A DNA stretch of 64,000 nt from a virus, in the IMG/VR virus record IMGVR_UViG_3300046665_000193, positions 14,981-78,980 of that record. The stretch is one strand, 5' to 3'. A program made the translations under genes and the position numbers. The notes under the pieces are model-generated. The model had not been told where the DNA came from. It saw only the letters and a list, made by a program, of their open reading frames with translations, and ran no database searches. Below, one piece after another: positions 36,285 to 58,881 of this stretch (position 1 is the stretch's first letter; every line of letters starts with the position of its first letter).

Positions 36285-36422
36285 ATTATGCTCCCCTCCG
36301 TTTACCTAATAGGTCCACTGAGGGGAGCCTGAGGTGAGGTTAAGGTTCACTGACCATCCTTGGGGTCCCCAGTAAGGATGAGACCCTAAGCAAGACCATG
36401 TGATGGTGAGACCGAGGTTGCC

Positions 36423-36629
36423 ATGCCGTTGCCTACTCCGAAGCCTTACACCCATGTCCGCCTTATGGATGAACCGGGGACTATGGATCGATACGAGATC
36501 AGGGTGTCCACCTTCATCGAGTACGACGACAATCCGGGGAGGAGGGCTATCAACGGGAAGCCCACCAAGGAGCAGGCTCTGCAGATGGCCAAGGAGATCG
36601 CCCGGCAGAAGCGGATCGAGTATCCGTGA
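36423..36629 (+). CDS. Small hypothetical protein
   Basis: GAGG RBS, phage-like codon usage. Confidence 0.6.
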   Translation: MPLPTPKPYTHVRLMDEPGTMDRYEIRVSTFIEYDDNPGRRAINGKPTKEQALQMAKEIARQKRIEYP

Positions 36630-37497
36630 CCGAGACCCGCCCCATAGCCTCGCTGACGCTCGGCTCCAGGGCGGAAGTAGGGCAAGGCTCTCTAGGAGGC
36701 CCGTACAGTGCCCTTTCACCGGCACCCTCACTGACCCTGCTGTGCACCTCAAAGAGCGCACCCTGAGCCACGCCTGCTGACCGTAGAGTGTCTCCGAAGT
36801 GCATGTGAGGTGGGTTGCGGATAGTTGGTGAAAATCTCTGAAGTGGGGGCTCGAACCCTAAGGTGGCGCGTTTCCCCCGTGGCCCCTCGCGATCCACACG
36901 CATTGCAGGGCGATTGGCACCGCACCTTGTCACCGCACCATGCTAAGCCATTGATATGACTCAGGTCGCACGGGATGATGCATCCACATTGCCCATGAAA
37001 TGCAGGGGCGGGGCGCTATCGGGGCAGTGCAAGGCGTTGCGGTTCGTCCGCCTTCATCTTCATATCAGTGTATTTGCGATTGCAGCCCGCACCTTCAATG
37101 CACCTCAACAGCACGTCAGAGGCACGTTAGCGCCACGCCAGCGCAACGGCAGTGCCACCATGGGCCGCGTCTATAGTGCACGTCAGGTGCGCATGAGGTG
37201 ACAGGGGCAGGGCGCTTGCATTGTCACCACACGCCGCACCCACGTTGTCACCTCAGTGCACCTCAGATGCACGGGCAGGGCGCTATCGTGTGCCGTATGG
37301 CTTCCATTGTCCTGCAGCGTCATAGCGCCCGCCGTCACTGCGCACCTTGCCGTCATTCCACGTTAGCAGGGCCATTACAGCCACTGCGATTGCACCCAAG
37401 ATAACGATTTGCTTGGCCTTCATAACTACACTTCGACTCCGAAAGCGGTGACAAAACAGTGGATTATAAAATTGTTCTGTCTACCTGCATTTTATTG
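36630..37497. other. Non-coding region, probable virion genome-end / terminal repeat junction
   Basis: Lies between late (terminase) and early genes as in a circularised T7-like genome; rich in GCACC and TGTCACC repeats. Confidence 0.6.
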
Positions 37498-40863: not shown

Positions 40864-41052
40864 ATGAAGCGACGCATTTTCACTAGCATCAAGTCAGCAC
40901 GCCACGCAGGGCTGCAGGCTGTCACGGGCAGGGCGCTCCAGTTCAAGATCGAGGCCACTGTCATCTGGAACAAGGATCGCTCTGCCGACATCGGTTGGCA
41001 GGTTTCGCTCTGGAGCCCTGTGGGTAACTTGAAGGGCTGGGTGCGCGGATGA
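40864..41052 (+). CDS. Early hypothetical protein
   Basis: ORF right after an operator copy. Confidence 0.55.
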   Translation: MKRRIFTSIKSARHAGLQAVTGRALQFKIEATVIWNKDRSADIGWQVSLWSPVGNLKGWVRG

Positions 41053-41414
41053 GTTATGAACAGGCAATCGATCTCGTCGGCGATGCACCGGCTTGGGTGC
41101 TGGAGGGGATCATCGAGCGACAGCCGAAAAGGTCGCGTTATGCACAGGCCGCTTGGGTGCTTTTGAAGAAGAAAGTGGGAGCCTGAAAACAGTAATCATT
41201 CCCGCAACGTTTCGTGCACCAAGTCATGTTCCCGCCTCAATAATTTGTTGCTGACCTTCCAATCATAAAATATCCCGTGACGTAGTTGGTGAGCGATTGG
41301 AAGATTAGCTTGCAGACAAAGCTATTGAACGGAAGGACATTATCCCTAGACAAGGGGCTCTGTTCTCGCTACGTTCTAATAATCAGAAACGCACTAAAGG
41401 ACTTCACTTACATC

Positions 41415-41729
41415 ATGCGCCACCTGTTTGGAGTTATCGAACTACCGACGGAAGTCGAGCCTGACCAACTCGTTTCTCCCGACTTGCCCAACGGATATGA
41501 GACCGTAGCCGGTTGGTGGGCGACGCGAGAAACCGCTGCGCTGGAGATGCTTAGCGACCCTATAGCAACGCTTTTCGAAGACGAGGAGCATCTAATAACC
41601 ATCGCGGACAAGCTTGAGGTTTTGTGGAAGTGGGTAACCGCTCCCCCGGCGTTTCAGGCAATGGGATTTAAAGTTTCGAAAGCTTTTCCCTTAGATTTGC
41701 TTCAACAATTCTATCCCCTTCACCCTTAA
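41415..41729 (+). CDS. Moron-like hypothetical protein (AT-richer, own promoter)
   Basis: TAGACA-17-TACGTT at 41347; hairpin at 41742-41770 downstream. Confidence 0.6.
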   Translation: MRHLFGVIELPTEVEPDQLVSPDLPNGYETVAGWWATRETAALEMLSDPIATLFEDEEHLITIADKLEVLWKWVTAPPAFQAMGFKVSKAFPLDLLQQFYPLHP

Positions 41730-41795
41730 TCAGCTAAATATCCCGGCGCGGGGACGATCAATGCGCCGGGTTGCAGGGACGGGAACCAAAACTAC

Positions 41796-41824
41796 TTGCC
41801 AAGAGTAGTTAATCTCGTTATGGC
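41796..41824 (+). promoter_or_regulatory. Candidate sigma70 promoter for marR-int-tRNA unit
   Basis: TTGCCA-17-TATGGC, overlapped by inverted repeat AACTACT/AGTAGTT. Confidence 0.5.
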
Positions 41825-41881
41825 GAATAACCAGCAACCGTAGGAGCGTACAAAATGCCGACCAGAGGGACTACAACCACA

Positions 41882-42235
41882 ATGAGTAACGTGACGAACA
41901 TTGAGGACAGCGAGTGGGTTGAGAAGCTCGCTCTGGTCATAGATGAGTTTCGCAAGATCAGTCAGGACATCACAGCAAACCAAATGCTGGTCCTCCTTCG
42001 CATCGGCGAGCACCCCGGCATCACGCAGAACAAGCTCGCGGAGAGCACGGGCCTTCGTGACGGCACCATCTCGCGCATCTGCGCCATGATGTCGGAGCGT
42101 GGGCATCAGGGCCGAGAAGGGCTCAGCGTCATATCGATCAACCCCGTCCCAAATGACTATCGCGCGAAGGGCCAGGAACTGATCGGCAACGGCAAGCGCA
42201 TGTACACCAGCATCAAGAAGCTGATGAGCAAGTAA
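41882..42235 (+). CDS. MarR-like winged-helix regulator (candidate repressor or directionality factor)
   Basis: QMLVLL.I...PGITQ..LAE..GL...TISR, D.R.K wing; directly upstream of int. Confidence 0.8.
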   Translation: MSNVTNIEDSEWVEKLALVIDEFRKISQDITANQMLVLLRIGEHPGITQNKLAESTGLRDGTISRICAMMSERGHQGREGLSVISINPVPNDYRAKGQELIGNGKRMYTSIKKLMSK

Positions 42236-42247
42236 GAGGAGCCGCAG

Positions 42248-43363
42248 TTGGCGACCTATCCTAAGGGAAACAAATTCATCACCAAGTTCATGATCGACGG
42301 GGTTCGACATACCCGGATGCATGACACAGAAGCCGAAGGCGAAGCGTGGGAGCTGCAAAGCCGCGCGAACCTCAAACTAGGCAAAGCTATTCCAGTCGCC
42401 GAAAAGAAGATCGGTGGCAGCGACGCTGGAGCGCTCGGCAACCTTCTCCGCGAAACCGCAACCCTCCACTGGGCCAAGGGCAAGGACAGCTCAAAGTGTG
42501 AGCTGAATGCCACCACCTTCGTCAATTGGTGCGGCAAGGACATGCCCTCCCGCGACGCCTTCAAGCAGGACAACATCGACGACTTCGTCGCCTACCTCAT
42601 CAACGAGCGTGAGGTATCCGGCTCGACGGTCAATCGTTACTGTTCCGCCATCCGGGTCATGGCTCAGCGGATCATCAAAAAGTCCGAAGACCTCCCCACG
42701 TTCCCAAAGTATAAAGAGAGCAGGGGCCGGTTCCGGTTCTTCTCCCATGAGGAGGAGCGGCAGATCACCGCGCTCTGGACCCTCTGGGAGCGGTACGCTG
42801 AGCTGGACTTCCTCATCTTCCTGATCGACACCGGAGCCCGCACCTACACCGAGGGACAGGCACTTAAGTGGGTCGATATCCACGCCGACCGGGCCATCTT
42901 CTGGGAGACCAAGAACGGCGGGTTCCGTGCGGTTCCGCTAAGCGAGCGGGCCAAGGCTGCTCTGGAGCGCCGCCGTAAACTAAAGGGTAACCAAGCCGGG
43001 CCGTTCAGCGACCTCGACAAGAGCCACATGCGCTGGCTCTGGGAGAAGACCCGTGGCCAGTTACCGCACCTTGAGGATGCCGTCCTGTATTGCACCCGGC
43101 ACACCTACGGTTCCCGAATGGTCATGAACGGGGTGCCCCTGTCGGTCCTCAAGAAGCTGATGGGCCACTCGGACATTAAGATGACTGAGCGCTACGCCGT
43201 GTTCGAGGACAACGCCGCCTTCGCCGCAGCGCTCACCGCCCTCAACAGCAACGGCTTTGCCCCCAAGGCCGCGCCCTTGTCGGTCGTGGTCGATAACGAA
43301 CCGGCACCGGGTCCCATGGAGGTTCTGGCCAAGAACCTTGAACGGGCAGGGCAAGTGCAGTAG
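42248..43363 (+). CDS. int: Tyrosine integrase
   Basis: TGAR, TKNG, YxxRH, MGH, RYA catalytic motifs; N-terminal arm-binding-like region. Confidence 0.95.
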   Translation: MATYPKGNKFITKFMIDGVRHTRMHDTEAEGEAWELQSRANLKLGKAIPVAEKKIGGSDAGALGNLLRETATLHWAKGKDSSKCELNATTFVNWCGKDMPSRDAFKQDNIDDFVAYLINEREVSGSTVNRYCSAIRVMAQRIIKKSEDLPTFPKYKESRGRFRFFSHEEERQITALWTLWERYAELDFLIFLIDTGARTYTEGQALKWVDIHADRAIFWETKNGGFRAVPLSERAKAALERRRKLKGNQAGPFSDLDKSHMRWLWEKTRGQLPHLEDAVLYCTRHTYGSRMVMNGVPLSVLKKLMGHSDIKMTERYAVFEDNAAFAAALTALNSNGFAPKAAPLSVVVDNEPAPGPMEVLAKNLERAGQVQ

Positions 43364-43396
43364 ACACCCCGGCCATGTCGTTCGGTCGCGAGACCG

Positions 43397-43448
43397 GGTG
43401 ACAATGCGGGTGACAAAGGGGTGCGAAATGGCACCTCTTTGGTGACAA
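43397..43448 (+). repeat. Arm-type repeats GGTGACAA, P arm of element B
   Basis: Copies at 43397, 43409, 43441. Confidence 0.8.
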
Positions 43449-43449
43449 T

Positions 43450-43534
43450 GCGGGCGTGGCGGAATTGGTAGACGCAGCGGCTTTAGGTGCCGCCGCCGTA
43501 AGGTTTAGGGGTTCGAGTCCCTTCGCCCGCACCA
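43450..43534 (+). tRNA. tRNA-Leu(TAG), phage-borne, encoded CCA
   Basis: Full cloverleaf; differs from 575-659 by a compensatory D-stem pair and variable-loop changes. Confidence 0.96.
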
Positions 43535-43707
43535 TCGAAGCCACGGGATTTAGGTGTTGGTGCCAAATCCTCTAGCTTTCGCAGGTGATACGCCCCGTTT
43601 CGCCGACTTCCCAAGTTGCTTCAATCACATCAGTAGATCAGTAATCTACTGCGCTTGGCAGGTTATTTTCCTGACAGGTCAAAAGGTGACAATAAGAGGT
43701 GACAAAT

Positions 43708-44534
43708 TCACCTATCGACGAGCGCTTCTGGCTGATTTGTGGATTTGGCCAGTCGCTTCAACTCATTGATCGTTTCGATTACTCGATCCATCGGCTCGAC
43801 GACTGTGTATCCTGAGTTGTGTCGTCGTTGACTTACCTCTTGACGATCAACTGAGCTATACAGCTTCTCGACAAATCCGATATTTCTGATTGCGACTCCG
43901 ACGGAGTGTCGATCCTCGGCCCTCAGCACCAAGCCACCACTGTTACCGGGATAGGTTGGACAATCGATGATGATCTTGTTGCTCGGCGGCTTGCCAGCTA
44001 CGATACCCGAGCGCAGCAGCGGGTATCCTCGGTCAAGCGCATCTTCCTTTTCAGCGAGTGAGGTTGGGTAGCCCATCATGAAGATCGGCTCCCCCGGTAT
44101 CACCGACGCATACAAGGCGGTCATGCTAAGAGGCGTACCTTGCAGGTATGTCGCCGGGTCGTAACCAATTTGAGTGACGCCTTCGACGAGGTCCATTCGA
44201 TACCGATTAACCCCCGCATCAGGCTGAGGTCTCATCGTTCCAATTCGACAGACGGCCACATCGGTGAGACCATCGGGATGCCTGCAAAAATTACCGTCTG
44301 CAAAAAGCCTCGGACTGTCGAGCGAATGCTTGACTGTCTTAGTGAGCGTTACACTATCGAGTGCGGTGATTATCACCGGATCAGTGAAGAGTTCTAATTT
44401 GTTTTTTAACAGAACATGCGCTGCCGAAACGAGATAGACGTTCTCGTTGTCGTAGAGATGGACCCGCTTCCTGTTGTGCCTTTTATCTCGATGAGGGCTG
44501 GGTAAGATAAGTAGTTGAGGTCCCTATTCGGCAC
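43708..44534 (-). pseudogene. Trypsin-like serine protease with a 1-nt frameshift near 44462
   Basis: GTG 44534 gives MPNRDLNYLSYPALIEIKGTTGSG; the other frame continues HLYDNENVYLVSAAHVL...DVAV...GNSGG; one added base restores GSGF and a 275-aa ORF. Confidence 0.8.
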
Positions 44535-44550
44535 GAGTACGCCCCCAAAA

Positions 44551-44635
44551 TGGTGCCCGGCGAGGGACTCGAACCCCCACACCTTTCAGCGACGGTACCT
44601 AAAACCGTTGCGTCTACCAATTCCGCCAGCCGGGC
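44551..44635 (-). tRNA. tRNA-Leu(TAG), divergent, cassette-borne
   Basis: GCCCGGC/GCCGGGC acceptor, ACGGT-TTTAGGT-ACCGT anticodon arm, GGTTCGAGTCC, ACCA. Confidence 0.95.
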
Positions 44636-44888
44636 ACGGGGCATTCCGATACACAATTGAGCGGTGGATGTCTCGACATAATCCACTGTTCGTCGTATTG
44701 GCGTCACCGGGTGACAAATCAGGTGTGAAATGGGTGACATTTTGCACCTGATGATGACAGTGCAGGTATCGCCGATCTAAATAAGCTCAGCGATTACGGG
44801 AGCTTAGGCGTCTCACGGTTTTGCGCCACGAGATTTAGGTTCCCGCGTCACTTATACTACGATTAGCAACTACATACTAACATATTGA

Positions 44889-44920
44889 GGGCAGTGCAGA
44901 AATGCGCTGCCTTTTCTTTT
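44889..44920 (+). terminator. Rho-independent terminator in P' arm of D
   Basis: GGCAGTGCA-GAAA-TGCGCTGCC + T-tract. Confidence 0.8.
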
Positions 44921-45010
44921 GCGTGCTCATACTACGATAAGAAGGTGGATATGGGTGACACCCGCTTTGGTGACAGTGGAGCGGTGACAAAGTGACAATC
45001 AGGAGAACAC

Positions 45011-45697
45011 ATGCAGAACTACACAAAGGCCCGCGAGTGGAACGGCAAGGCGCTTAAGGGCGCGTGGGAATGCACCATCAAGATCGATGGCTGGCGTCTG
45101 CTTTGGAACGGTAACGAATGGGTGAGCAGGGCCAACAAGCCCATTCCGAACATCCCGCCGTGGCTCCCCGGCATGGCCACCGACTTCGAAGTGTTCCTCG
45201 GATCGCTCGCGCTGACCTCTCGCGCCTGCAAGACGAAGCACCTCAAGCCCGACACGCCGCGCGTCAAATACGACCACCTCTACAGTCTGGTTCCGCTGGA
45301 CCCTCGGCTGGTCATGCCCGGCCTGATCGACCCGACCGCTGAGCAAATCGCCGAGCTGCTGGCTGACGTGAACCGGCGCGGGTTCGAGGGGCTGGTGCTC
45401 CGACAAGGCGACCGCTGGATCAAAGTGAAGCCAGCCCAGACCCACGATGTGCTGATCACCGGCTACGGCGCTGGCGAGGGTAAGCATGAGGGTCGGCTCG
45501 GCTACCTGACCTCCGCGTTCGGCGACGTGGGCACCGGCTTCACCGACGAAGAGCGCGAAGAGCTGTGGGCCGAGGCGCTGGCCGGGACGCTGGTTGGCCA
45601 GACCATGGAGGTCGGCTGCATGCACCTGACCGAGGACGGCCAGTTCCGACACCCGCGCTTTGAGCGCATCCGCCATGACAAAATCGCAGAGCGATGA
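45011..45697 (+). CDS. Minimal ATP-dependent DNA ligase
   Basis: KIDGWR (motif I), EGLVLR (IV), KVK (V), GTGF, RHPRF OB domain. Confidence 0.92.
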   Translation: MQNYTKAREWNGKALKGAWECTIKIDGWRLLWNGNEWVSRANKPIPNIPPWLPGMATDFEVFLGSLALTSRACKTKHLKPDTPRVKYDHLYSLVPLDPRLVMPGLIDPTAEQIAELLADVNRRGFEGLVLRQGDRWIKVKPAQTHDVLITGYGAGEGKHEGRLGYLTSAFGDVGTGFTDEEREELWAEALAGTLVGQTMEVGCMHLTEDGQFRHPRFERIRHDKIAER

Positions 45698-45870
45698 CGC
45701 GCTGGCAGGACGAGGCGAACGCGCACTGGGACCGGATACGGGAGCGCATCAGGGCCAACCCAACGATCATCAAACCACAGCGGCTTGCTCACGAGGAAGC
45801 CGAAGACCTTCGCCGCCAACTGCAGGCGGCACACGCCGAGATCAACAGACTACGCAAGGGGACCGCATGA
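45694..45870 (+). CDS. Small hypothetical protein (58 aa, MTRWQDEA...)
   Basis: ATGA overlaps with both ligase and RNAP. Confidence 0.6.
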   Translation: MTRWQDEANAHWDRIRERIRANPTIIKPQRLAHEEAEDLRRQLQAAHAEINRLRKGTA

Positions 45871-48320
45871 CGGCAGCAGCAGTGCAACTGAGGGAAGAAG
45901 ACCTCGAACATCAGGCCCAGTTCAAGGGCGCAAAGCGGGTAAGGGATCAGGTCGCAAAGGCAAAGCAGCGCGGGCTGGGGGCTGACACTCCGGGCGGCGT
46001 GGCGCTTATGAAGCGGGCAGTCCAGCCGCTCGCCAAGCTGATCGAGCAGACCATCCTCGACGCCCGGTCAGGCAAGGCGGGTCGCCGCCACATCGCCATC
46101 GCCACCATGGAGAAGCTGCCCGCCGAGGTGCTGGCCTATCTGACGGTGCGCGAGTGCATCAGCGCGGCCATCCAGATCGCGCCGCTGACGAACACCGGGC
46201 TCAAGCTGGGCAGTTCCATTGAGGAGGAGCTGCGGCTGCAGGCGTTCGATGAGCAGGCACCGGACCTCTACCACACCATCATGCGCCGCCTTAAGGAACG
46301 TGGCGCTGGCGCTGGGCATGCCCGCAAGGTGTTCGTGTTCGCGGCCAACAAGCCCGACACCAACGTCGAGCTGCCGACCATCGCCAAGACGGACAAGCTG
46401 CACATCGGCATCCGCTTGATCGAGCTGCTGATCGAGGCCACCGGGTTCATCGAGCCGGTCACCGTCCGCATGGGCAAGACCAAGACCCGCACCATCATCC
46501 GCCCGACCGAGACCGTGGCGAAATGGATGGAGGACCGGAACCTCACCGCCGAGCTGCTGAGCCCTCACTATGCGCCCATGGTGGTGCCTCCGAAGGACTG
46601 GGAAGGCGTGAAGGGTGGCGGCTACATCAGCCCCGACTTCAAGCAACTCTCGCTGGTCAAGCGGTGCACCAAGAAGCAGCACAAGGAGGTGATGGCGCGG
46701 GCTGACCTGTCACAGGTGCTGCGTGCCCTCAACGCCGTCCAGCGCACCGCGTGGGCGATCAACACCGACGTGCTCGATGTCATGAACGAGGTCTGGGACA
46801 AGAGCTACGAGGTGGCGATGCCCAGCCGGGACGATCTGCTGGTGCCACCGTATCCTGCCGGTCACGTCGTCGCCGAGACGCCGGAAGAGGCATGGGCCAA
46901 CGTCCACCCCGACGCCAAGAAGGCTTGGATGCGCGGCGCTCGCAAGGTCTACGAAGGCAATGCGTCGAGCCGTGGCAAGCGCATGGGCATCTCGCAGATC
47001 ATCCACACCGCCAAGACGCTGGCCGGTGAGCCTGAGGTGTTCTTCCCGCACCAGCTCGACTTCCGGGGCCGGGCCTACGCAGTGCCCATCGGGCTCAACC
47101 CACAGGGCAGTGACCACGCCAAGGCGCTGCTGCACTTTGCGCACGGCAAAGCGATCACCACGCCCCGCGCTGCGGGCTGGCTCGCGATCAACGGTGCCAA
47201 CCTCTACGGTTACGACAAGGCCGCGTTCGCCGACCGCATCGCATGGGTCGAGGAGCGAGAGGAGCAGATCAAGTACACTGCACGGTGCCCGCTGGCTGAC
47301 CTCTGGTGGACTGATGCGGACAAGCCGTGGTGCTTCCTCGCTTGGATTTTCGAGTATGCGAAATTCCTGGGGGAAGGTTATGGGTTCGTCTCGCGGTTCG
47401 TCTGCAGTGTGGACGGCTCGTGCAACGGGCTGCAGCACTTCTCGGCCATGCTGCGTGATCCCATCGGCGGCGCTGCCGTCAACCTCGTGCCCGGTGAGCT
47501 GCCTGCTGACATCTACCAGCGCGTGGCTGATCGCGTCATCGAGAAGCTGAAAGAGGAGGGCGATGAGTGGGTGCCCCGTGGCTGGCTGGACTTCGGCATC
47601 AACCGCAAGACCACCAAGCGCCCGGTCATGGTGCTGCCCTACGGGGGCACGTTCAAGAGCTGCATGGAGTACGTCCGCGAGGCCGTAGGTGAGCAGATCA
47701 ATGACGGCAAGGAGAACCCGTTCGGTGATGAGCTGGGCAAGGCAACCGCCACGCTGGCTCGCAACGTATGGGACAGCATCGGCGACGTTGTCGTGGCCGC
47801 TCGCACGGCGATGGACTGGTTCCAAAAGTGTGCCCGCGTCGCGGCTAAGGCTGGGGTGCCGCTGATCTGGACGACACCGTCAGGCTTCCCCGTGTTCCAG
47901 AGCTACATGGACACGACCAGCCGCCGCGTGAAGACTCGGCTGCAGGGCTCGCTCGTCTTCCTGTCGCTGTCCGAGGACACTGACAAGATCGACGCCGGGC
48001 GGCAGGCGCTGGCTGTATCGCCCAACGCGGTGCACTCGCTCGATGCCTCGGCCATGGTGCTGACCATCAACCTCTGCCTCGACAACGCCGTCGAGCAGTT
48101 CGCTATGGTGCACGACAGCTATGGCACCGTCGCCGCCGACATGGACATGCTCGCCGCCTGCCTCAGGCATGCGTTCGTTGACATGTACGTGGAACATGAC
48201 GTGCTCGCCGAGTTCCTCGCCGGGCTCCCCGAAGAGGTGAGGGCGCAGTGCCCGCCACCACCGCCCAAGGGTTCGCTGGACATCCGCAAGGTGATCGACA
48301 GCGAGTTCTTCTTTGCCTAG
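45867..48320 (+). CDS. T7-like RNA polymerase
   Basis: Same motifs as 1142..3595; start MTAAAVQLREE. Confidence 0.97.
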   Translation: MTAAAVQLREEDLEHQAQFKGAKRVRDQVAKAKQRGLGADTPGGVALMKRAVQPLAKLIEQTILDARSGKAGRRHIAIATMEKLPAEVLAYLTVRECISAAIQIAPLTNTGLKLGSSIEEELRLQAFDEQAPDLYHTIMRRLKERGAGAGHARKVFVFAANKPDTNVELPTIAKTDKLHIGIRLIELLIEATGFIEPVTVRMGKTKTRTIIRPTETVAKWMEDRNLTAELLSPHYAPMVVPPKDWEGVKGGGYISPDFKQLSLVKRCTKKQHKEVMARADLSQVLRALNAVQRTAWAINTDVLDVMNEVWDKSYEVAMPSRDDLLVPPYPAGHVVAETPEEAWANVHPDAKKAWMRGARKVYEGNASSRGKRMGISQIIHTAKTLAGEPEVFFPHQLDFRGRAYAVPIGLNPQGSDHAKALLHFAHGKAITTPRAAGWLAINGANLYGYDKAAFADRIAWVEEREEQIKYTARCPLADLWWTDADKPWCFLAWIFEYAKFLGEGYGFVSRFVCSVDGSCNGLQHFSAMLRDPIGGAAVNLVPGELPADIYQRVADRVIEKLKEEGDEWVPRGWLDFGINRKTTKRPVMVLPYGGTFKSCMEYVREAVGEQINDGKENPFGDELGKATATLARNVWDSIGDVVVAARTAMDWFQKCARVAAKAGVPLIWTTPSGFPVFQSYMDTTSRRVKTRLQGSLVFLSLSEDTDKIDAGRQALAVSPNAVHSLDASAMVLTINLCLDNAVEQFAMVHDSYGTVAADMDMLAACLRHAFVDMYVEHDVLAEFLAGLPEEVRAQCPPPPPKGSLDIRKVIDSEFFFA

Positions 48321-48398
48321 TCACCTTCTAAACGTAGAGTAGCTATGCACGGTAGGAATAGGTAGCACACCTACTCCACCAAACGCTGAAAGGTTCAC

Positions 48399-48560
48399 AT
48401 GAAGCATTCACTGACCATCCGCATGGGCGCTGCCAACTGGGACGCTACCGTCACCAACGGCCCGCGCTTCGACTTCCGAACCATGACGACCCCGCAGCGC
48501 AAGCAGTGGTACGGCGCGTTCATGTCGTCGGTTCGCAAGATGTATCGGGGCGCTCGCTAA
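48399..48560 (+). CDS. Small hypothetical protein
   Basis: Homolog of 3674..3835. Confidence 0.8.
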   Translation: MKHSLTIRMGAANWDATVTNGPRFDFRTMTTPQRKQWYGAFMSSVRKMYRGAR

Positions 48561-48763
48561 TGCGGAACACCCTGACCAACCTGAGCCTCGCGCTCGCCAC
48601 CCTGATCGTCGCCGCACTGCTGATGCTGCTCTTCGGAGTACAGGCCGCAACCGTGCTGGCAATCTTCCTGCTGCTCGCCATCGTCTCGGGGACCGCCAAC
48701 ATCCTCTGCTTCCTGATGGAGATCATCGACAGCATCCGAGGCTGGATGGGCTGGCTTCGGTGA
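48560..48763 (+). CDS. Small membrane protein
   Basis: Diverged homolog of 3835..4038. Confidence 0.7.
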   Translation: MRNTLTNLSLALATLIVAALLMLLFGVQAATVLAIFLLLAIVSGTANILCFLMEIIDSIRGWMGWLR

Positions 48764-48869
48764 CCGAGTTCGTCTGCTTCCTCGCAGGCTTCGGGCTGGG
48801 GGTCGGCGCAACCTCAGCCTTCGTCATTCGCGCAGCACTTAAGGACATCAAGGAACTGTCTCAGCTCAC

Positions 48870-49133
48870 ATGATCAATCGTGACCAGATGACCAACGCCG
48901 ACGCTCAGCTCGTTGCTGACGCTGGCATCGCCATCCTCGACAGGATGCAGAACTACAAACCGCACATCCAGCCACTGGCACTGTGCGCCGCGTTCCTCAC
49001 TCTCGCCGCTCACATCCGCGTCCCTGCTCAGGACCTCTTCACGCTCACGACGAACATGCTGTCGGAGGAAGAGAACATCGCGGAGTTCAAGGCGCTGCGT
49101 GACTACGTCAAGTACGAGATCAAGCGTGCTTAG
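48870..49133 (+). CDS. Conserved phage hypothetical protein
   Basis: Identical to 4145..4408. Confidence 0.8.
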   Translation: MINRDQMTNADAQLVADAGIAILDRMQNYKPHIQPLALCAAFLTLAAHIRVPAQDLFTLTTNMLSEEENIAEFKALRDYVKYEIKRA

Positions 49134-49329
49134 GCTCTGGCCCGTCTGGGTGATCCTCGCCGCTGTCATCATCGGCGCATGCCCCTGATGTCTCGCAACC
49201 TCTCACTCGCAATTCACATGTGGCGGCAGGGCTATCCACTCCCTGTCGATCTGCACACCGCACTCACCAACGAGGGGCTCAACGTGGCCCGCCTCGAACA
49301 GCGCTATCGCGCGTAAGGAATACGAATAC

Positions 49330-50091
49330 ATGGCAAATGCAAAGCGACCGCAGGCTCCCAAGGGCACGACCTTCAAGGGCATCTTCAAGTGGCCGAAGCT
49401 GACTGAACCGGACTACGGCTCCAAGGAATACCCGAAGGAGAACGGCGAGTTCTCGGTGAAGCTGGTCGGTCGCATCGACGATCCCGACGTGCAGGCGTTC
49501 ATCGCCAAGTGGCAGCCGCTGCACGATCAGGCGATCAAGGATGCCGAGGTCGCCTTCAAGGCGCTCAAGGTCGATGTCCGCAAGAAGCTGGGCAAGGTCA
49601 CCGTCAACCCGCTCTACACTGAGCTGTATGACGAAGAGACCGAAGAGCCGACCGGCGAAGTCGAGTTCAAGTTCTCGATGCAGTACAGCGGCGTCTACAA
49701 GTCTGGTCCGAAGCAGGGCAAGAAGTGGTTCCGTCGTCCCGGCATCTTCGATGCTCGCGGCAACGAGATGAACCCGACGCCGTCGATCTGGGGTGGCACG
49801 AAGGGCCGCGTGGCGTTCGAGGTTGGCCTCAATCCCGAAGGCGCTCCCGGCTACTTCATCAGCGGCACTGGCGCTGCCGGTCTGACCCTGCGTCTGCAGG
49901 CTGCTCGCATCCTCGAACTGGTCAGCGAAGGCCAGCGTGACGCCAACAGCTACGGCTTCGGCGAAGAGGAAGAGGGTTACGAATACGACCCGTCCTCGGT
50001 CGCAGAGAAGTCGGCACCGGGCGACACCTCCGATCAGTCGGAAGGTGATGCAGGCGAAGGCACCGACGCTGGCTCCAACCCGGACTTCTAA
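49330..50091 (+). CDS. ssDNA-binding protein (gp2.5-like)
   Basis: Homolog of 4607..5368. Confidence 0.9.
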   Translation: MANAKRPQAPKGTTFKGIFKWPKLTEPDYGSKEYPKENGEFSVKLVGRIDDPDVQAFIAKWQPLHDQAIKDAEVAFKALKVDVRKKLGKVTVNPLYTELYDEETEEPTGEVEFKFSMQYSGVYKSGPKQGKKWFRRPGIFDARGNEMNPTPSIWGGTKGRVAFEVGLNPEGAPGYFISGTGAAGLTLRLQAARILELVSEGQRDANSYGFGEEEEGYEYDPSSVAEKSAPGDTSDQSEGDAGEGTDAGSNPDF

Positions 50092-50518
50092 GCCACGGGG
50101 AATTGTTGAGGGCTACCGCAGCGGTCTTGAAGAAAAGGTCGCTGCGCAGCTCGCATCCCTTGAGGTGCCCGCTCACTACGAGCAGTACAAACTGAACTAC
50201 GAAGTCCCGGCCCGTAAGGCCACCTACACTCCAGACTTCGTGTTGCCCAATGGGATCGTGATCGAGACGAAGGGACGTTTCGTCACCGCTGATAGAAAGA
50301 AACATCAGCTCGTTCGGGCAAGCCATCCCAACATCGACATCCGGTTCGTGTTCTCGAACCCCAATAATCGCATCGGGAAGAAGAGCGAAACCACATACGG
50401 CATGTGGTGTAGCAAGCTCGGCTTCCTCTTCTCGAAAGCATTCATCCCCGAAGCGTGGGTGAACGAACCCGTGTGCCCAAAGCGGCTCGCGGCGAACGCT
50501 GCTGCGTTCAAGAAGTAA
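50069..50518 (+). CDS. Endonuclease I (gp3-like), probable CTG start
   Basis: YRSGLE, YTPDF, IETKG. Confidence 0.92.
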   Translation: MAPTRTSKPRGIVEGYRSGLEEKVAAQLASLEVPAHYEQYKLNYEVPARKATYTPDFVLPNGIVIETKGRFVTADRKKHQLVRASHPNIDIRFVFSNPNNRIGKKSETTYGMWCSKLGFLFSKAFIPEAWVNEPVCPKRLAANAAAFKK

Positions 50519-50588
50519 CGACCGGGGAGGGCATGTGCTCTCCCCACCTCAGCTCATAAGCATCCCATGACGGGAAGAAGGACTACAC

Positions 50589-51008
50589 ATGACCAATCGC
50601 ATCACCACTGGCGACACCGTCGAAGTCGTTGACACCCAGCTCAACCGTAACTCCACCGTCTGGCGTCGTCGCATCGGCGAACGTCTGGTCGTCGAGGCGG
50701 TCAGCTCACTCAACTCGGTTCGCATCGCAGGCTTGCCTCGCGGTGGCTGGAGCATGGAGCGCTTCAAGAAGGTGACACCTGTGCGCCCCGCCGATGAAGT
50801 CGTCGTCGGCCAGTACATCATCATCCTGCGCAACGATCAGGGCGTGTTGCTGCCAGCCGTCAATCCGAAGGTCTACCTGACCGACGTTGAGGCCAAGCGT
50901 ATCGGCTCAGTCATGGCGAAGAAGCACGGGGGCACGTTCCAAGTGTTCAAGGCCATCTGTGAATACGACATGCCGAAGGTCACCACCCCGACCTTCCGTG
51001 CACTCTAA
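50589..51008 (+). CDS. Hypothetical protein
   Basis: Homolog of 5865..6284. Confidence 0.75.
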   Translation: MTNRITTGDTVEVVDTQLNRNSTVWRRRIGERLVVEAVSSLNSVRIAGLPRGGWSMERFKKVTPVRPADEVVVGQYIIILRNDQGVLLPAVNPKVYLTDVEAKRIGSVMAKKHGGTFQVFKAICEYDMPKVTTPTFRAL

Positions 51009-51022
51009 GGGAGGGGCCAGGA

Positions 51023-51403
51023 ATGTTGAAGCGCATCCTCACCGCACTCGCTCTGGTCGGTACGCTCGCTGTTGCGGGCTGTGCCGATGACGCCCGCGTC
51101 GCATCGCAGAACCTCACGAGGGCTGCGGACAACTTCGAAATCCCACGCCGCATCGTCTTCTACAACGCGATGACGGACGGATACATGCTCGAAATCGAAG
51201 GGCTGTGCTCGCAGGAGCAGAGCGACAAGAAGCTCACGGTCATCTGCAAGACCGGCCCGACCGAGTTCAAGAAACACTTCCTCGGCCTGAGCGACACCGT
51301 CACCTACTTCTCCGAACAGATGGAGCCGGTGAAGGCCAGCACGCAGCACTACCGCGTGACGTTCAAGCCCTCGACCATCGTCAGCAACTACGACTGGCGC
51401 TGA
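51023..51403 (+). CDS. Phage lipoprotein
   Basis: Lipobox LAVAGC; absent from element B. Confidence 0.8.
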   Translation: MLKRILTALALVGTLAVAGCADDARVASQNLTRAADNFEIPRRIVFYNAMTDGYMLEIEGLCSQEQSDKKLTVICKTGPTEFKKHFLGLSDTVTYFSEQMEPVKASTQHYRVTFKPSTIVSNYDWR

Positions 51404-51547
51404 CATGGAGTGGCTCCTGACCAAGCTCGTGGCCATGTGCGGCATCGCATTCGCCACCATCCTGTTGCTCGGCGCAGTCCGCTTCGCCGTCGCAATCATC
51501 GTCTCGTTCTCCACACAACTCTGACACCTCTCAAGGAACCATCACAC

Positions 51548-51793
51548 ATGGCAAAAGATTTCCGCGTCGTCGGCCCGAAGCCCCAGACCAAGCTCCTGCT
51601 CGACCACTTCTCCGACCGACCGTCAATCAGCGCTGTCGAAGCAGCCGCGCTGTATCGTATCCGCTCGCTGAGCCGACGCATCAACGATCTGCAGGACGAG
51701 GGCCACAAGTTCTCCAAGCAGCACGCCGTCGATCCGACCGGCCAGCGCTACGTGCGCTACCACTACCTCGGCCAGACGAGCTACGCAGCCTGA
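51548..51793 (+). CDS. Small winged-HTH protein
   Basis: Homolog of 6333..6569. Confidence 0.7.
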   Translation: MAKDFRVVGPKPQTKLLLDHFSDRPSISAVEAAALYRIRSLSRRINDLQDEGHKFSKQHAVDPTGQRYVRYHYLGQTSYAA

Positions 51794-52050
51794 TGAAGAA
51801 GTCCGCTGTAATTGAGGCGCTGCGGCTTGCAGGTATGGACGACGCCGTAAAGGTAGTTGAGTCGATGCCCACGCGCCGCCGCGCCGTGAAGGTCCGCACC
51901 CGCCCTGTTAGTGAGAAGATGACGCCCGAGCTGGCGCACCGCATCCAACACTTACTGGGCACCACCGACCTCGCGACACACAAGATTGCCGCGCTGGTGA
52001 ACGTGAACCCCGGTCGCGTTACCGAAGTGCAGCAGGGCCGCTGGCTCTAA
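51793..52050 (+). CDS. HTH DNA-binding protein
   Basis: HKIAALVNVNPGRVTEV. Confidence 0.65.
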   Translation: MKKSAVIEALRLAGMDDAVKVVESMPTRRRAVKVRTRPVSEKMTPELAHRIQHLLGTTDLATHKIAALVNVNPGRVTEVQQGRWL

Positions 52051-52053
52051 CCG

Positions 52054-53748
52054 TTGTCTGACGACGACAGCACCTTCGTCGCGAAGGAGCCATGCCCAGA
52101 GTGTGGCTCCCGCGACAACCTCGCTCGATACACAGACGGCCACGCATTCTGTTTCGGTTGCTCACACTGGGAGCCGCCGACCGATGGCTCTGGAGAGCGC
52201 ACCCCACCCACCGAAAGGAGACATGTGTCAGGCTTGATTGATGCAGGCGAATACATTGCGCTGAACAAACGCCAACTATCCGAAGAGGATTGTCGCAAGG
52301 CGGCATACTCAGTCTCCACCTTCCGAGGTCAGGCCGTCCAGATCGCAGCGATCAAGGACCCCATGACAGGCGAGACCATCGCCCAGAAGGTTAGGCTCCC
52401 CAACAAAGACTTCCTGTATCTCGGCGAGACCAAGGACGATCCGTTCTATCTGCAGCACCTGTGGAAGGATGGCGGTAAGCGCGTCGTCATCACCGAGGGC
52501 GAGATCGATGCAGTCACCGTGCTCAAGATACAGCAGCACAAGTGGCCCGTCGTCTCCATCACCAAGGGCGTCAAGGGCGCGAAGAAGCAGATACAGCAGC
52601 AGCTCAAGTGGCTCGACAAGTTCGACGAAGTCGTCCTGATGTTCGACAACGACGAGCAGCACACGCGGCCTGATGGCTCGACGTGGTATCCCGGCCAAGA
52701 CACCGCCATCGAATGTGCAGCGCTCTTCAAGCCCGGCAAGTGCAAGATCGCGCGGCTCCCGCTCAAGGATGCCAGCGACATGCACACTGCCGGTCGCGAC
52801 GACGAAGTCATCACCGCGATCTGGAACGCCAAGACGTATCGCCCTGACGGTGTCGTTACCATCGCCGACATTCGCGACGCGGTGCTCAAGGACCCAGAGC
52901 AGGGCTATCCGTGGTTCTCGGAGAAGCTGACAAAGCTGACATATGGGCGACGCCTCGGCGAGGTGAGCACGTTCGGCGCAGGTACGGGCGTTGGCAAGAC
53001 CGACTTCCTGACTGAGCAGATGCAGTTCGACATGGTGCAGCTTAACCAGCCCATCGCCGTGTTCTCTCTGGAGCAGCCACCGGCTGAGACTGTGAAGCGC
53101 CTCGCTGGCAAGCAGGCTGGCAAACGCTTCCACATCCCTGCTGAAGCCGCAGGCTGGACGAAGGAAGAGCTGATCGCGTCCATGGATGTGATCGAGGCTG
53201 GCGGCAAGCTGTTCATGTACGACAGCTTCGGCGCGACGGACTGGGGCATCATCGCCACCACCATCCGCTTCCTGCATCACAGCGAGAACGTCAACCTGTT
53301 CTACGTCGATCATCTCACCGGCCTTGCGGCTGCGGAGGATGACGAGCGGACGGGGCTGGAGCGCATCATGACCGAGGTCTCGATGCTCGCCAAGGAACTG
53401 CACATCCACATCCATCTGGTGTCGCACCTCGCAACGCCGGAAGGGAAGCCGCACGAAGAGGGCGGTCGCGTGATGATCCGCCACTTCAAGGGCTCCCGCG
53501 CCATCGGCTTCTGGAGCCACAACATGTTCGGCATGGAGCGTGACCAGCAGGCCGACAGCGAAGTGCTCCGAACGATCACCACCTTCCGCATCCTCAAGCT
53601 TCGTGCTGACGGCTCGCGCGTCGGTCAGTGCGTCTACTTCGGATACGACAGCGAGATCGGACGACTGTTCGAGACCGAGCTGCCGGAAGAGGACGAGGGA
53701 AGCAATCCATTCCAAGGCAAGGCCGAAGGAGCCAACACCGATTTCTGA
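52054..53748 (+). CDS. Primase-helicase (gp4-like)
   Basis: Homolog of 7561..9258. Confidence 0.97.
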   Translation: MSDDDSTFVAKEPCPECGSRDNLARYTDGHAFCFGCSHWEPPTDGSGERTPPTERRHVSGLIDAGEYIALNKRQLSEEDCRKAAYSVSTFRGQAVQIAAIKDPMTGETIAQKVRLPNKDFLYLGETKDDPFYLQHLWKDGGKRVVITEGEIDAVTVLKIQQHKWPVVSITKGVKGAKKQIQQQLKWLDKFDEVVLMFDNDEQHTRPDGSTWYPGQDTAIECAALFKPGKCKIARLPLKDASDMHTAGRDDEVITAIWNAKTYRPDGVVTIADIRDAVLKDPEQGYPWFSEKLTKLTYGRRLGEVSTFGAGTGVGKTDFLTEQMQFDMVQLNQPIAVFSLEQPPAETVKRLAGKQAGKRFHIPAEAAGWTKEELIASMDVIEAGGKLFMYDSFGATDWGIIATTIRFLHHSENVNLFYVDHLTGLAAAEDDERTGLERIMTEVSMLAKELHIHIHLVSHLATPEGKPHEEGGRVMIRHFKGSRAIGFWSHNMFGMERDQQADSEVLRTITTFRILKLRADGSRVGQCVYFGYDSEIGRLFETELPEEDEGSNPFQGKAEGANTDF

Positions 53749-54118
53749 CAAATGCGAACCGCTTCACAAAGCTGGACCGCTGGACCTGCGCATCACTCGC
53801 GCGGGTCCGATGATCCTGATCACCACCCTAGACGGCGAGGAGGTTGTCGCTGAGCAAGTCATCGCCCGCGAAGGCATTCCGTCATTCATCAGAGCATTGC
53901 GCGAGGTGGCCGGTGTCTAACGCGCCCACGGTGTTCGCCCTCAGCGCTCATGAGAACGTCCGCGTGGCCATCGACGACAACGAGGTCATCATCGGCGTCC
54001 CCGATCAGAAGGCCGTCGTGATCCCTATCGTCCTCTTCGCGCACATCGTGGCGATGATCGACGAACTCTGCACCACCAACAGCATCCACATGGAAGAAGC
54101 GGCACTGGTAACAAAGCA

Positions 54119-56086
54119 TTGAAATTTGACTTCGACTGCGAGACGGACGGGCTCCTGCCCGAGATGACCGTCGTCCACTCTTTGGTGCTCGGAGACATCG
54201 ACAAGGGCACCCACCACTCATTCTGTGACCAACCCAACTACCCGAAGATCGACGAAGGTTTGCGGGAGCTGATGGACGCGGACTTCATGTGTGGCCACAA
54301 CGTCATCAACTTCGACATCCCCGCGCTGCAGAAAATCTATCCATGGTTCAAACCGCGCGGCGAAGTGCAAGACACGCTGGTCCTGTCGCGCCTCATCAAG
54401 GCGGACATCAAGGACGACGACTTCAGCTTCGCCAAGAAGATGGAACGACGCGGCACTCCGCACCTGTTCCCCAAGGCCATGATCGGCAGGCACTCGCTCG
54501 AAAGCTGGGGCTACCGCCTCGGTGAGTGGAAGGGTGACTATTCCGATGCCCGCAAGAAGCTCGCGAAAGAGCTGGGCATCAAGGGCAAGGCCGAGATCAT
54601 GCGCTTCGTCTGGGGCACATGGAACAAGGAGATGCAGGACTACTGTGTGCAGGACGTTGCTGTCACCAGCAAGCTCCGTGAGTTCTTCTGGGCCAAGCTG
54701 GCGCAGGGGTGGGGCGAGCACTGCGTGGAGCTGGAGCACGAGATCGCGTGGCTCATCTCCCGGCAGGAACGGTACGGCGTTGGGTTCGACGAGCCCGCTG
54801 CCGCGAAGTTCTACGCAACCCTGATCGGCCACCAACAGCAGCTCGACATGAAGCTGCAGCAGTCGTTCCCGCCGAAGACTGTAGAGACCATCTTCGTCCC
54901 GAAGGTGAACAACAAGAAGATGGGCTATGTGAAGGGCGTTCCCTTCGTGAAGCGCCAGATCGTGCCGTTCAATCCCGGATCGAACAAGATGAAGGCTGAG
55001 CGGCTGCAAGAGCTGGGGTGGAAGCCTCAGGCTTACGGCAAGGACGGCGTCCCGACCATCGACGACGAAGTCCTCTCGACCATGAAGTATCCTGAGGCAC
55101 AGCTCCTCAAGGAACGCTCTCTGATCGATAAGCGCCTCGGTGCTCTGGCGAACGGCCAGCAGGCGTGGCTCAAGAATGTCCGCAACGGTCGCATCCATCC
55201 AGAGGTGATCACCAACGGTGCGGTGACTGGGCGCATGACGCATCGCGTCGTCGTGAACGTGCCCGGAGCCATCGACAAGAAGACCGGCGAGAAGCAGCTC
55301 TATGGGCTGGAGTGCCGTGCGCTCTTCATCCCGAAGAAGGGCAACGTGCAAGTCGGCTGCGACGCTGACAGTCTCGAAGGCCGAGTCATGGGCCACTACA
55401 TGGGCTTCTATGACGGCGGCGCTTACGCTACCTCGCTGCTCTACGGCAACAAGGCCGAGGGTACGGACAACCACTCGCGCACTGCTGCGGCGCTGGCGAA
55501 GTGGAAGTGTCACCGCGAGACAGCGAAGACCTACTTCTATGCTCTGGTCTACGGCGCGTTCGACGCCAAGCTGGGTGAAATCCTCGGCGCGACTGGTAGT
55601 AAGAAGGCCAAGGAAGCTGTCGGCAAGGAGAGCCGCGAAGCTGTGATGAAGGGCATCCCCGGTCTCGACCGACTGGTGAATGCGCTCACCGCCAAGGCGA
55701 AAGCCAACGGCTACATCATGGGCCTCGACGGTCGCAAGCTGCGCGTCCGTTCGGCTCACGCCATCCTGAATACGTTGTTCCAGTCCGCTGGCGCTATCGT
55801 CATGAAGGAAGCTGCCATCATCCTCGACACCGAACTATGCGGCGTGAAGCCCAGCGTGATCGGCAAGATGGGTGTGGAAGCGGCCACCAAGCTTCGCCCT
55901 GGCACCGACTATGAGTTCATGTTGAACTATCACGATGAGTGGCAGCTCGACGTTCCACCTCGCAACGTAGAGATCGTATCGACGGCGGCAACAGATGCCA
56001 TCCGTCTGGCCGGTGACTACTACAAGTTCCGTTGCCCGCTCAAAGGCAACGCGGATATCGGCGATAGCTGGGCCGCAACGCACTGA
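54119..56086 (+). CDS. Family A DNA polymerase (gp5-like)
   Basis: Homolog of 9629..11596. Confidence 0.97.
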   Translation: MKFDFDCETDGLLPEMTVVHSLVLGDIDKGTHHSFCDQPNYPKIDEGLRELMDADFMCGHNVINFDIPALQKIYPWFKPRGEVQDTLVLSRLIKADIKDDDFSFAKKMERRGTPHLFPKAMIGRHSLESWGYRLGEWKGDYSDARKKLAKELGIKGKAEIMRFVWGTWNKEMQDYCVQDVAVTSKLREFFWAKLAQGWGEHCVELEHEIAWLISRQERYGVGFDEPAAAKFYATLIGHQQQLDMKLQQSFPPKTVETIFVPKVNNKKMGYVKGVPFVKRQIVPFNPGSNKMKAERLQELGWKPQAYGKDGVPTIDDEVLSTMKYPEAQLLKERSLIDKRLGALANGQQAWLKNVRNGRIHPEVITNGAVTGRMTHRVVVNVPGAIDKKTGEKQLYGLECRALFIPKKGNVQVGCDADSLEGRVMGHYMGFYDGGAYATSLLYGNKAEGTDNHSRTAAALAKWKCHRETAKTYFYALVYGAFDAKLGEILGATGSKKAKEAVGKESREAVMKGIPGLDRLVNALTAKAKANGYIMGLDGRKLRVRSAHAILNTLFQSAGAIVMKEAAIILDTELCGVKPSVIGKMGVEAATKLRPGTDYEFMLNYHDEWQLDVPPRNVEIVSTAATDAIRLAGDYYKFRCPLKGNADIGDSWAATH

Positions 56087-56459
56087 CCCGGAAGGGTACG
56101 TGTACATCATCACCAACCCGGCATGGCCATCACACTGCAAGATCGGCAAGGCACTCGTCATGAAAGACCGCGTGAAGGTCTATCAGACGGGCTCGCCTTT
56201 CCGTGACTACAGGGTAGTCGCCCATGCGTTCTTCGCAGATCGCAAGGCGGCTGAGGCTGAACTGCACGAGCAACTAAGGGGCCACCGCGTCGGCAAGACA
56301 GAGTGGTTCTTCATTCATCCCGACGACGCCAGCGCAATGCTGCGTCGCATCTCCCGCAGAAAGAGAAAGCATGTCAGAGCAAGATCGAAGCACATGGTCA
56401 AACGAACTCCGCAGCAAGTACGGCATCGCGCAACCCGAGGCTCCCGTGACAAACGCTGA
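55995..56459 (+). CDS. GIY-YIG / T5orf172-domain protein (start uncertain)
   Basis: GYVYIITNP..KIG..EWF. Confidence 0.8.
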   Translation: MPSVWPVTTTSSVARSKATRISAIAGPQRTDPEGYVYIITNPAWPSHCKIGKALVMKDRVKVYQTGSPFRDYRVVAHAFFADRKAAEAELHEQLRGHRVGKTEWFFIHPDDASAMLRRISRRKRKHVRARSKHMVKRTPQQVRHRATRGSRDKR

Positions 56460-56500
56460 TCTGTTCAACGACATGATCAACGAAGAGTTCTGGCAAGGCG

Positions 56501-58388: not shown

Positions 58389-58395
58389 CCAGATC

Positions 58396-58713
58396 ATGGC
58401 AAGGCTGAACCGCAACCCGGTAGCAGAGGAGGTGGGTGACAATAGGTTGCCCGCCTACTCAAATACATCGCCTTCCGTTGCACCTGAGGTGTCAGCGGAG
58501 ATCATCAACTATCTGAACGCCACGTTCCCCGACGCGCTCCCTCCCGTGGGCTCTGCCTATACCGAGGTCGAGCGAGCATGGGGACGGCGCGAGGTGATCG
58601 ACCATCTGATCCGGCTTCAGACCCAAAACGAAGAAGAGAACAATGTGCTTCGGCGGCGGATCGACTCCACCCCCAGCGCAGGCCCCGGCACCACCGCCGC
58701 CGCCTCCGGCTGA
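58396..58713 (+). CDS. Hypothetical protein (gp6.5 position)
   Basis: Homolog of 13522..13836. Confidence 0.6.
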   Translation: MARLNRNPVAEEVGDNRLPAYSNTSPSVAPEVSAEIINYLNATFPDALPPVGSAYTEVERAWGRREVIDHLIRLQTQNEEENNVLRRRIDSTPSAGPGTTAAASG

Positions 58714-58879: not shown

Positions 58880-58881
58880 CC

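Follow-up and report, generated by a model that had tools for sequence, protein, structure and literature searches.

The definition of cis-mobilisable elements (CIMEs) and the account of their accretion are given in PMC5704250. Such elements are flanked by related attL and attR sites, carry no integration or transfer genes and stand in accretion with an autonomous element. They descend from integrative and conjugative elements (ICEs), for which ICESt1/ICESt3 in Streptococcus thermophilus are examples (PMC5704250, citing Pavlovic 2004 and Bellanger 2011), and they are thought to arise by accretion and deletion (PMC5704250). Among phages, tRNA-dependent lysogeny has been described for actinobacteriophages (Fionnbharth, Cluster L) by Guerrero-Bustamante and Hatfull (2024, PMC10865867), who suggested that it might occur elsewhere. 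P-SSP7 and S-TIP37 are T7-like phages that integrate with tRNA-Leu as the target (PMC8776855), and LUZ100 is a temperate member of the Autographiviridae with an integrase gene (int) and a MarR-type regulator (PMC10134795). Here, a window of 64,000 nt was analysed, which comprises bases 14981-78980 of the 78,980-bp IMG/VR record IMGVR_UViG_3300046665_000193, a record classified as linear and not as a provirus. The window contains T7-like phage DNA with an RNA polymerase-sized open reading frame, a ligase, a tyrosine integrase (Int) and a MarR-type regulator. The phage stretches are called A, B and D in their order on the contig. Between B and D lies a 1,285-bp unit bounded by direct copies of TTTAGGT (43549-44840), whose content is a protease gene and a tRNA-Leu(UAG) gene. 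This cassette is probably a CIME-like, non-autonomous att element that belongs to the attachment system of a family of temperate T7-like phages and has recombined with a phage attP.

The cassette resembles a CIME in several respects. Its flanks are related attL and attR sites, it encodes no integration or transfer functions, it stands in tandem with an autonomous relative that entered one of its att sites, and it could be co-excised. On the other hand, its helper is a T7-like phage and not an ICE, its length is only 1.3 kb, and its cis-mobilisation is a proposal. It also differs by residing in the anticodon loop of a destroyed tRNA gene, for which it carries a replacement tRNA. When the flanking phages were compared with the tRNA-dependent lysogeny system, attB was found inside a tRNA gene, the core was short and the gene was not rebuilt. 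A tyrosine integrase with putative arm sites is common to both systems. However, the phages described here are T7-like and come from soil and rhizosphere, and the core is the anticodon loop itself. The cassette differs further, since it is integrase-less and not a phage, although it follows the same logic with a putative tRNA requirement. P-SSP7/S-TIP37, LUZ100 and the Paadamvirus phages TRX32-1 and RHEph01 share with the phages of the window the T7-like genome, int, the adjoining MarR-type regulator and the association with tRNA-Leu. In the cyanophages, attP duplicates part of the host tRNA gene exactly, whereas here only 10-13 nt are shared between phage and attB and a whole tRNA is carried. 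The integrases are less than 31% identical to those of any GenBank phage.

The TTTAGGT core is the anticodon loop of the host tRNA-Leu(UAG). IMG/VR was scanned for the host-type 5' half of this tRNA followed by the core, and the matches were mostly intact tRNA-Leu(UAG) genes, with several junctions among them. In the provirus G007, the host 5' half (...GACGCGCTGGA-TTTAGGT) is followed by a T7-like prophage that extends 42,838 bp to its far end. There, int, the P arm, a complete phage tRNA-Leu(tag) on the plus strand and 13 nt precede TTTAGGT-TCCAGTGACGAAAG..., which is the host 3' half. The two halves, when rejoined, give an intact 85-nt tRNA-Leu(tag). The same left (t5') junction occurs in G004, with an Int 79% identical to that of the window, and in G001, with an Int of 44% identity. 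A tRNA-Leu(tag) is carried by phages A, B, G002, G003, G005 and G007 and by the cassette. Because of the junctions in G007, G004 and G001, it is concluded that this phage family integrates in the anticodon loop, leaves the host tRNA unrebuilt and supplies a tRNA of its own. The flanks of the att core (CGGGA/TCCCG) resemble the host anticodon stem (CTGGA/TCCAG), whereas the stem of the phage's own tRNA differs. Other elements were also seen on the same tRNA-Leu 5' half and core, in G008 at 1428, G009 at 380 (L137, L138), G010 at 26808 and G011 at 2430. The repeats after the core are quite different in these elements (AGTCCGCAAT or AGTCTGCAAT). Therefore, several families of elements share this anticodon loop as a hot spot.

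TTTAGGT occurs six times in the window against 1.3 expected. The six copies are the anticodon loops of the three tRNA-Leu(tag) genes found with ARAGORN (Table 1) and three att cores (674, 43549 and 44834), of which the last two form the 7-bp pair that a preliminary description of this locus had reported around the cassette. Both cassette cores are joined to halves of the phage attP, and therefore site-specific recombination between a cassette-flanking core and the phage attP has occurred. The preliminary description had also stated that removal of the cassette leaves a perfect CGGGA-TTTAGGT-TCCCG junction, and this junction exists: the circular contig G002 has an uninterrupted attP without a cassette, CCACGGGA-TTTAGGT-TCCCGCG. 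Several further claims of that description were borne out. The flank of the right core, CCACGAGA, corresponds to CCACGGGA of the phage, and the phage motif GGTGACAA is present on both sides, with copies at 43685 and 43698 to the left and one at 44710 to the right. The tRNA differs from the phage copy, with 68 of 85 nucleotides identical (80%), and it is unlike the host tRNA, too. No remnant of Int or of any other phage protein was detected in the cassette by tblastn, in which hits below E=1e-4 fell only on the tRNA. Beyond the tRNA and a 60-nt piece of the right arm, no similarity of the cassette to phage DNA was detectable. The GC content is 52% in the cassette and 60% in the phage. The proposal that its own tRNA lets the cassette occupy the site alone fits an integration mode that destroys the host tRNA. 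For the protease gene, the stop codon was described correctly, being 2 nt away from the nearest left-arm site, but the gene itself is broken in the window by a missing base.

The arrangement of the arm sites supports the kinship with the phage attachment sites. GGTGACAA has 16 copies in the window against 1.85 expected. Distances of GTGACA were measured from the start of the core in nine att sites of the family. Its positions are -151/-139/-107 and +121/+136/+150, and they are kept even where the intervening sequence does not align; the +121/+136/+150 series holds also for phages with an Int of only 44% identity. In the cassette, the left sites are at +137/+150, in agreement with the earlier statement that their distances match those of the phage. 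Little of the left arm aligns with phage left arms beyond these two sites. The right-arm sites stand at -123/-100/-80 and are about 27 bp nearer to the core than in the phages because a 73-nt spacer occupies the position of the phage tRNA. In alignment A2, the four right-arm sites match the phage P arm in order and spacing, and the arm is 73-80% identical to phage P arms. CGAGA, the core-type half-site on the right, agrees with the family pattern. We infer that the GGTGACAA repeats are putative arm-type sites of Int. Their role in recombination is argued from the fixed distance to the core.

The cassette was then sought in public runs, which were compared over positions 41000-47500 of the window; the isolate runs are X1, X13 and X17. 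Uncovered stretches, for example the phage flanks in these three runs, were not counted as absence of the phage. On a 166,630-nt contig of isolate X1, positions 43546-44843 are present with no substitutions and one extra A. Upstream of the cassette lies the 5' half of the host tRNA (...GACGCGCTGGA / ...GCGGGCGTGGCGGAATTGGTAGACGCGCT), and downstream follow TCC+AGTGACGAAAGTTGTG, the tRNA 3' end and host DNA. With host tRNA halves on both sides, the cassette is therefore alone inside a split host tRNA gene. X1 was flagged as a possible source of this DNA, but the flanks of its cassette are unlike those in the window, which makes this a different context. Such a cassette-only insertion in a host tRNA-Leu(TAG) was one of two observations that the preliminary description had called for. 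The other, the same ends with different cargo, was also obtained, in relatives that share the right end and the tRNA and differ in the interior. In X17, the tRNA and right arm (44550-44843) have 99% identity, but the left core and the cassette tRNA are separated by 476 other letters in place of the about 994 nt of left arm and protease gene in the window. The host flanks of X1 and X17 share 30/30 and 29/30 nt. X13 has the two cassette ends, at 94% and 99%, with an interior that gives no alignment at 85%. P0006, a protease of 69% identity from a 1,338-nt contig, continues through this tRNA 3' end and the spacer as WGFESLAGHHFGGVLV. From the variants in X17, X13 and P0006 it follows that the backbone of tRNA and arms is conserved and the interior is variable. 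The cassette or parts of it were also found in rhizosphere, root, leaf-litter and soil metagenomes, of which X3 was compared over this range.

The chromosomal copies could in principle mean that the cassette is ordinary host chromosome between two attB sites. This is extremely improbable, as is an assembly artefact, because in the isolates the tRNA gene is interrupted, its halves flank the cassette and the core is duplicated; moreover, the cassette contains phage arm repeats and has the GC content given above, and the junction-specific 14-nt phage spacer excludes k-mer chimeras. Two candidate explanations were dropped: host DNA between two attB sites, in view of the tRNA halves around the cassette in X1, and cassette ends that are themselves tRNA halves.

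The structure of the record bears on how the phage context of the cassette is read. G002 and G003 are circular contigs with end overlaps of 127 nt. G002 matches the window at 19760-43555 with 97-98% identity (98.0% at the left flank) and at 44825-64000 with 99.3%. G003 matches the A part at 93-98% and positions 860-18643 at 99.2%. At least 112 nt are identical in B, D, G002 and G003 (window 18900-19012 and 63889-64000). Before this stretch, B is G003-like (99-100%), after it B is 100% G002-like, and the contig ends inside the second copy. Since B switches type at the repeat and the second copy closes the contig, the 79-kb record probably strings together two phage genomes, as in a walk along an assembly graph, and is not a proven tandem array. 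The walk would pass through part of a G003-type genome across an intact attP, the A/B junction, and then once round a G002-type genome with the cassette in its attP. The placement of the cassette between prophages B and D, as first described, is thus doubtful, B and D being probably opposite ends of a single type of phage genome. A genuine tandem array in a chromosome (A, B, cassette and D, with three different prophages) would agree with the continuity of the contig and with the 12-20% difference among A, B and D in their overlaps, and it is well established that prophages can lie in tandem at one att site. We consider such an array possible but somewhat doubtful, since B changes from G003-like to G002-like within a stretch that is identical in all four sequences, and the contig terminates in the second copy of that stretch. 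Besides, A and left B represent one phage type at an intact attP while right B and D represent another, and the 79 kb of this linear, non-provirus record contain no host DNA.

For the G002-type cycle of the walk, the source could be a phage genome that carries the cassette, two phage copies that flank a chromosomal cassette, or mixed cells in which the phage lies to one or the other side of the cassette. Whichever applies, the joints of the right end of B, the core and the left end of the cassette (B_R-core-C_L) and of the right end of the cassette, the core and the left end of D (C_R-core-D_L) are, judged by their letters, real recombinant joints and not k-mer chimeras, because the shared letters at each joint amount to only about 10-13 nt and the core is directly adjoined by spacers specific to the phage.

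In the CIME-like reading, the phage Int would carry out the exchanges via the arm-type GGTGACAA sites. A phage integrated beside the cassette could excise together with it through the outer sites, or could leave the cassette behind. Since the host's own tRNA gene is split, the cassette would be hard to lose except by precise excision. It retains only both att arms, the duplicated core, a phage-like replacement tRNA on the opposite strand and the protease gene. Of the earlier interpretation as a minimal element mobilised in trans, what stands is a discrete unit that lacks a recombinase and follows the att architecture of the phage, whereas the signs of CIME-like accretion and decay speak against a purpose-built hitchhiker. 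A more far-reaching reading, in which the helper's Int shuttles the cassette between the split host tRNA-Leu(UAG) gene and attP, the cassette travels within the packaged 45-kb helper genome, the host retains it for the only working tRNA-Leu(UAG) and diverse protease alleles are swapped between copies as possibly defensive cargo, is regarded as unlikely.

Several points weigh against the CIME-like reading. Next to the left core, the half-site GTTGG does not follow the family pattern TCxxx, and the right-arm sites have moved by about 27-28 bp toward the core; either of these alone could cripple excision. GGTGACAA also clusters at 36.9-37.5 kb (36927-37454), about 5 kb upstream of int and in mixed orientation, and this upstream cluster is found again in G001, G002 and G003. 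Therefore, the motif may be an operator of the MarR-type regulator, instead of or besides an arm site of Int. The descent of the cassette from a larger element by deletion would be read only from the homology of its arms. The cassette ends were found in no other IMG/VR contig, and neither the circle junction (CCACGAGA-TTTAGGT-GTTGGTGCC), nor a second location, nor an empty site in a close isolate relative was seen. In BLAST searches among GenBank phages and PLSDB plasmids, only the tRNA of the cassette gave matches.

Two alternatives share most of these observations. In the first, the cassette is an inert prophage scar that is kept for its working tRNA and never moves, while phages integrate at the adjacent cores and the outcomes are merged by the assembly. 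The chromosomal position at the same site in three isolates, the deviant left half-site and shifted right arm, and the lack of any circle or second site all agree with a scar; its arms would possibly be just inherited from a phage, and G001, whose relative G007 has a normal right end, would show such a deletion in progress. Nevertheless, four P-arm and two P' sites survive at family spacing amid sequence that does not align. X1 and X17, which are close hosts, have a 99%-identical right end with different interiors, as in turnover. Both junctions are of the same phage type, and one event (insertion in attP or co-excision) is simpler than two. The scar is thus a real possibility, though a lesser one. 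In the second alternative, the cassette is an active mini-satellite, a 1,285-bp circle with exchangeable cargo that the helper Int inserts in trans into attB or attP. The cassette-only insertion and the cargo variants that it predicts were found, the cassette lies exactly at a phage attP whose empty form exists, and the arm geometry is conserved. However, no circle was seen directly, excision would produce a junction with the poor GTTGG half-site, and the phage context is a single instance. Cis-mobilisation or flanking integration accounts for the same junctions, and distant protease homologues occur outside such cassettes. We judge the mini-satellite rather improbable.

With regard to the origin of the CIME-like cassette, the nearest relatives of its tRNA are phage tRNAs, with 92% identity in L201, an IMG provirus, and 84% in Paadamvirus rhizobiophages. 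In L201 (11668-12710) and in L202, Rhizobium phage TRX32-1 (1601-2715), the tRNA-Leu is antiparallel and just upstream of int. G001 (L002, IMGVR_UViG_2922379399_000003) is informative as well. In it, 26 bp separate the end of int (858-1934, minus strand) from a protease homologue in convergent orientation (1-831) that is 39% identical to the cassette protease. No P arm, tRNA or core lies between the two genes, and ARAGORN found no tRNA in the whole record, though the prophage splits a host tRNA-Leu. G007, the nearest relative of G001 (Int 68% identical), has a normal right end. G001 looks like a prophage that was fused by deletion to a neighbouring protease cassette. The colinear P-like arm, the rhizobiophage-like tRNA and the fusion in G001 together suggest that the cassette is a mosaic formed by accretion and deletion at the hot spot. 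For an origin by deletion, there are the arm homology and the phage-like tRNA, with no gene remnants, and G001 is a possible intermediate. A decayed phage tRNA as the source of the 73-nt spacer showed weak likeness, a score that was attained by 40 of 1000 shuffles.

The protease gene lacks one base near 44461/44462, so that its first 24 codons and last 222 are in different frames. The frame is closed in the phage context and open in the chromosomal copy of X1, where the extra A leaves the protease intact. The intact protease, P0004, has 275 amino acids and is encoded on a 3.6-Mb NCBI contig. The C-terminal fragment of 222 amino acids from the window (P0001) scored 26.3 bits to Pfam Trypsin_2 (PF13365), for which the cut-off is 27.6, while P0004 and its homologues hold a precomputed PF13365 assignment. 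His40, Asp92 and Ser199 are invariant across 12 aligned sequences of the family. Because the truncated product, P0005, is recorded from two contigs, the frameshift may be a genuine mutation and not a sequencing error. A profile search of the PDB with the protease alignment gave no match, and neither did an NCBIfam search; the sole match in a scan of genome contigs was a 37% hit in an Elusimicrobiales assembly. PADLOC returned weak matches (PDC-S45 at 4e-8 and RT-Protease_XI at 1e-4), and on these the protease may be regarded as a single-gene defence candidate. In 80 metagenome loci with protease homologues (up to 43% identity), no int, split tRNA, core pair or GGTGACA arms were present.

Other classes of passenger elements are less close. 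Integron cassettes and the elements that use the host XerCD (IMEX) are likewise small, recombinase-less cargo moved by a recombinase that is encoded elsewhere. However, a folded site of the attC type, IntI and a dif/XerCD site are all absent from the cassette, and its ends are of the lambda type, with arms and directly repeated cores. Phage satellites (P4, PICI, PLE and PICMI) also depend on a helper phage and integrate into the chromosome, but they encode their own integrase and helper-hijacking genes, and the cassette has neither. A full-text search of the literature gave no paper that describes a 1.3-kb cassette with a tRNA at an anticodon-loop site together with a T7-like helper. If the reading is true, tRNA-dependent lysogeny would reach T7-like phages of soil bacteria, with the crossover in the anticodon loop. 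As a by-product, a 1.3-kb element would hold the site with only att arms and a replacement tRNA. A simple model open to testing would follow, in which phages give rise to recombinase-less passengers, tRNA 'addiction' maintains them and attP lets them enter a phage genome. The arms and the tRNA would also make a minimal integration cartridge for any strain that expresses the Int of the window.

Table 1. Features of the cassette and of the phage DNA around it (positions in the 64,000-nt window)
Feature	Position	Strand	Remarks
tRNA-Leu(tag)	575-659	+	ARAGORN
MarR-type regulator	41855-42235		
Phage right end	42248-43548	+	integrase, P arm, tRNA and spacer; 98.0% identical to G002
Tyrosine integrase of phage B	42248-43363	+	Phage_integrase family, SAM-like N-domains
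P-arm sites of phage B	43397, 43409, 43441		within the right end
tRNA-Leu(UAG) of phage B	43450-43534	+	ARAGORN
14-nt spacer	up to 43548		right end of phage B; terminal letters CCACGGGA
Left core TTTAGGT	43549-43555	+	anticodon-loop sequence of tRNA-Leu(UAG), crossover region
P'-like left arm, 152 nt	43556-43707	+	GGTGCCAA at 43559-43566, 3 nt past the core
Left-arm GGTGACAA sites	43685-43692, 43698-43705	+	
Trypsin-like serine protease gene	43708-44534	-	frameshifted in the window; stop codon 43708-43710
Cassette tRNA-Leu(UAG)	44551-44635	-	ARAGORN; Rfam tRNA 51.4 bits
P-like right arm	44706-44766	+	four sites, 44710-44760, colinear with the phage P arm
Right-arm sites	44710-44717, 44722-44729, 44733-44740, 44753-44760		GGTGACAA, GGTGTGAA, GGTGACAT and GATGACAG, in this order
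73-nt spacer	44761-44833	+	at the position of the phage tRNA (+); terminal core-type half-site CCACGAGA
Right core TTTAGGT	44834-44840	+	in isolates followed by the host tRNA 3' half, TCCAGTGACGAAAGTTGTGGGGTTCGAGTCC...CACCA
Phage left end (P' arm)	44841-45010	+	begins with half-site TCCCG; 99.3% identical to G002
GTGACA sites in the phage left end	+121/+136/+150/+158		
Terminator-like hairpin	44887-44914		in the phage left end
Ligase	45011		first gene begins at 45011

Within the cassette, the tRNA is separated by 16 nt from the protease start, which lies downstream on the same strand, and a spacer of about 70 nt stands between the tRNA and the right arm. The MarR-family regulator gene is directly upstream of int. 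ARAGORN also called a structure that resembles a tRNA but has an 'anticodon' of 4 nt (tcga or gctt) in the window (63542-63625), in G002 (42400-42483) and in G003 (36353-36441). It is located just before a module boundary of phage sequence exchange, and B is without it at the matching place. The P-arm repeats of the phages enclose a palindrome, GGTGCCAAATGGCACC in A (548-563) and GGTGCGAAATGGCACC in B (43421-43436), for which the cassette has only a looser AGGTG...CACCT pair as the counterpart. This palindrome may be the site of a dimeric accessory protein.

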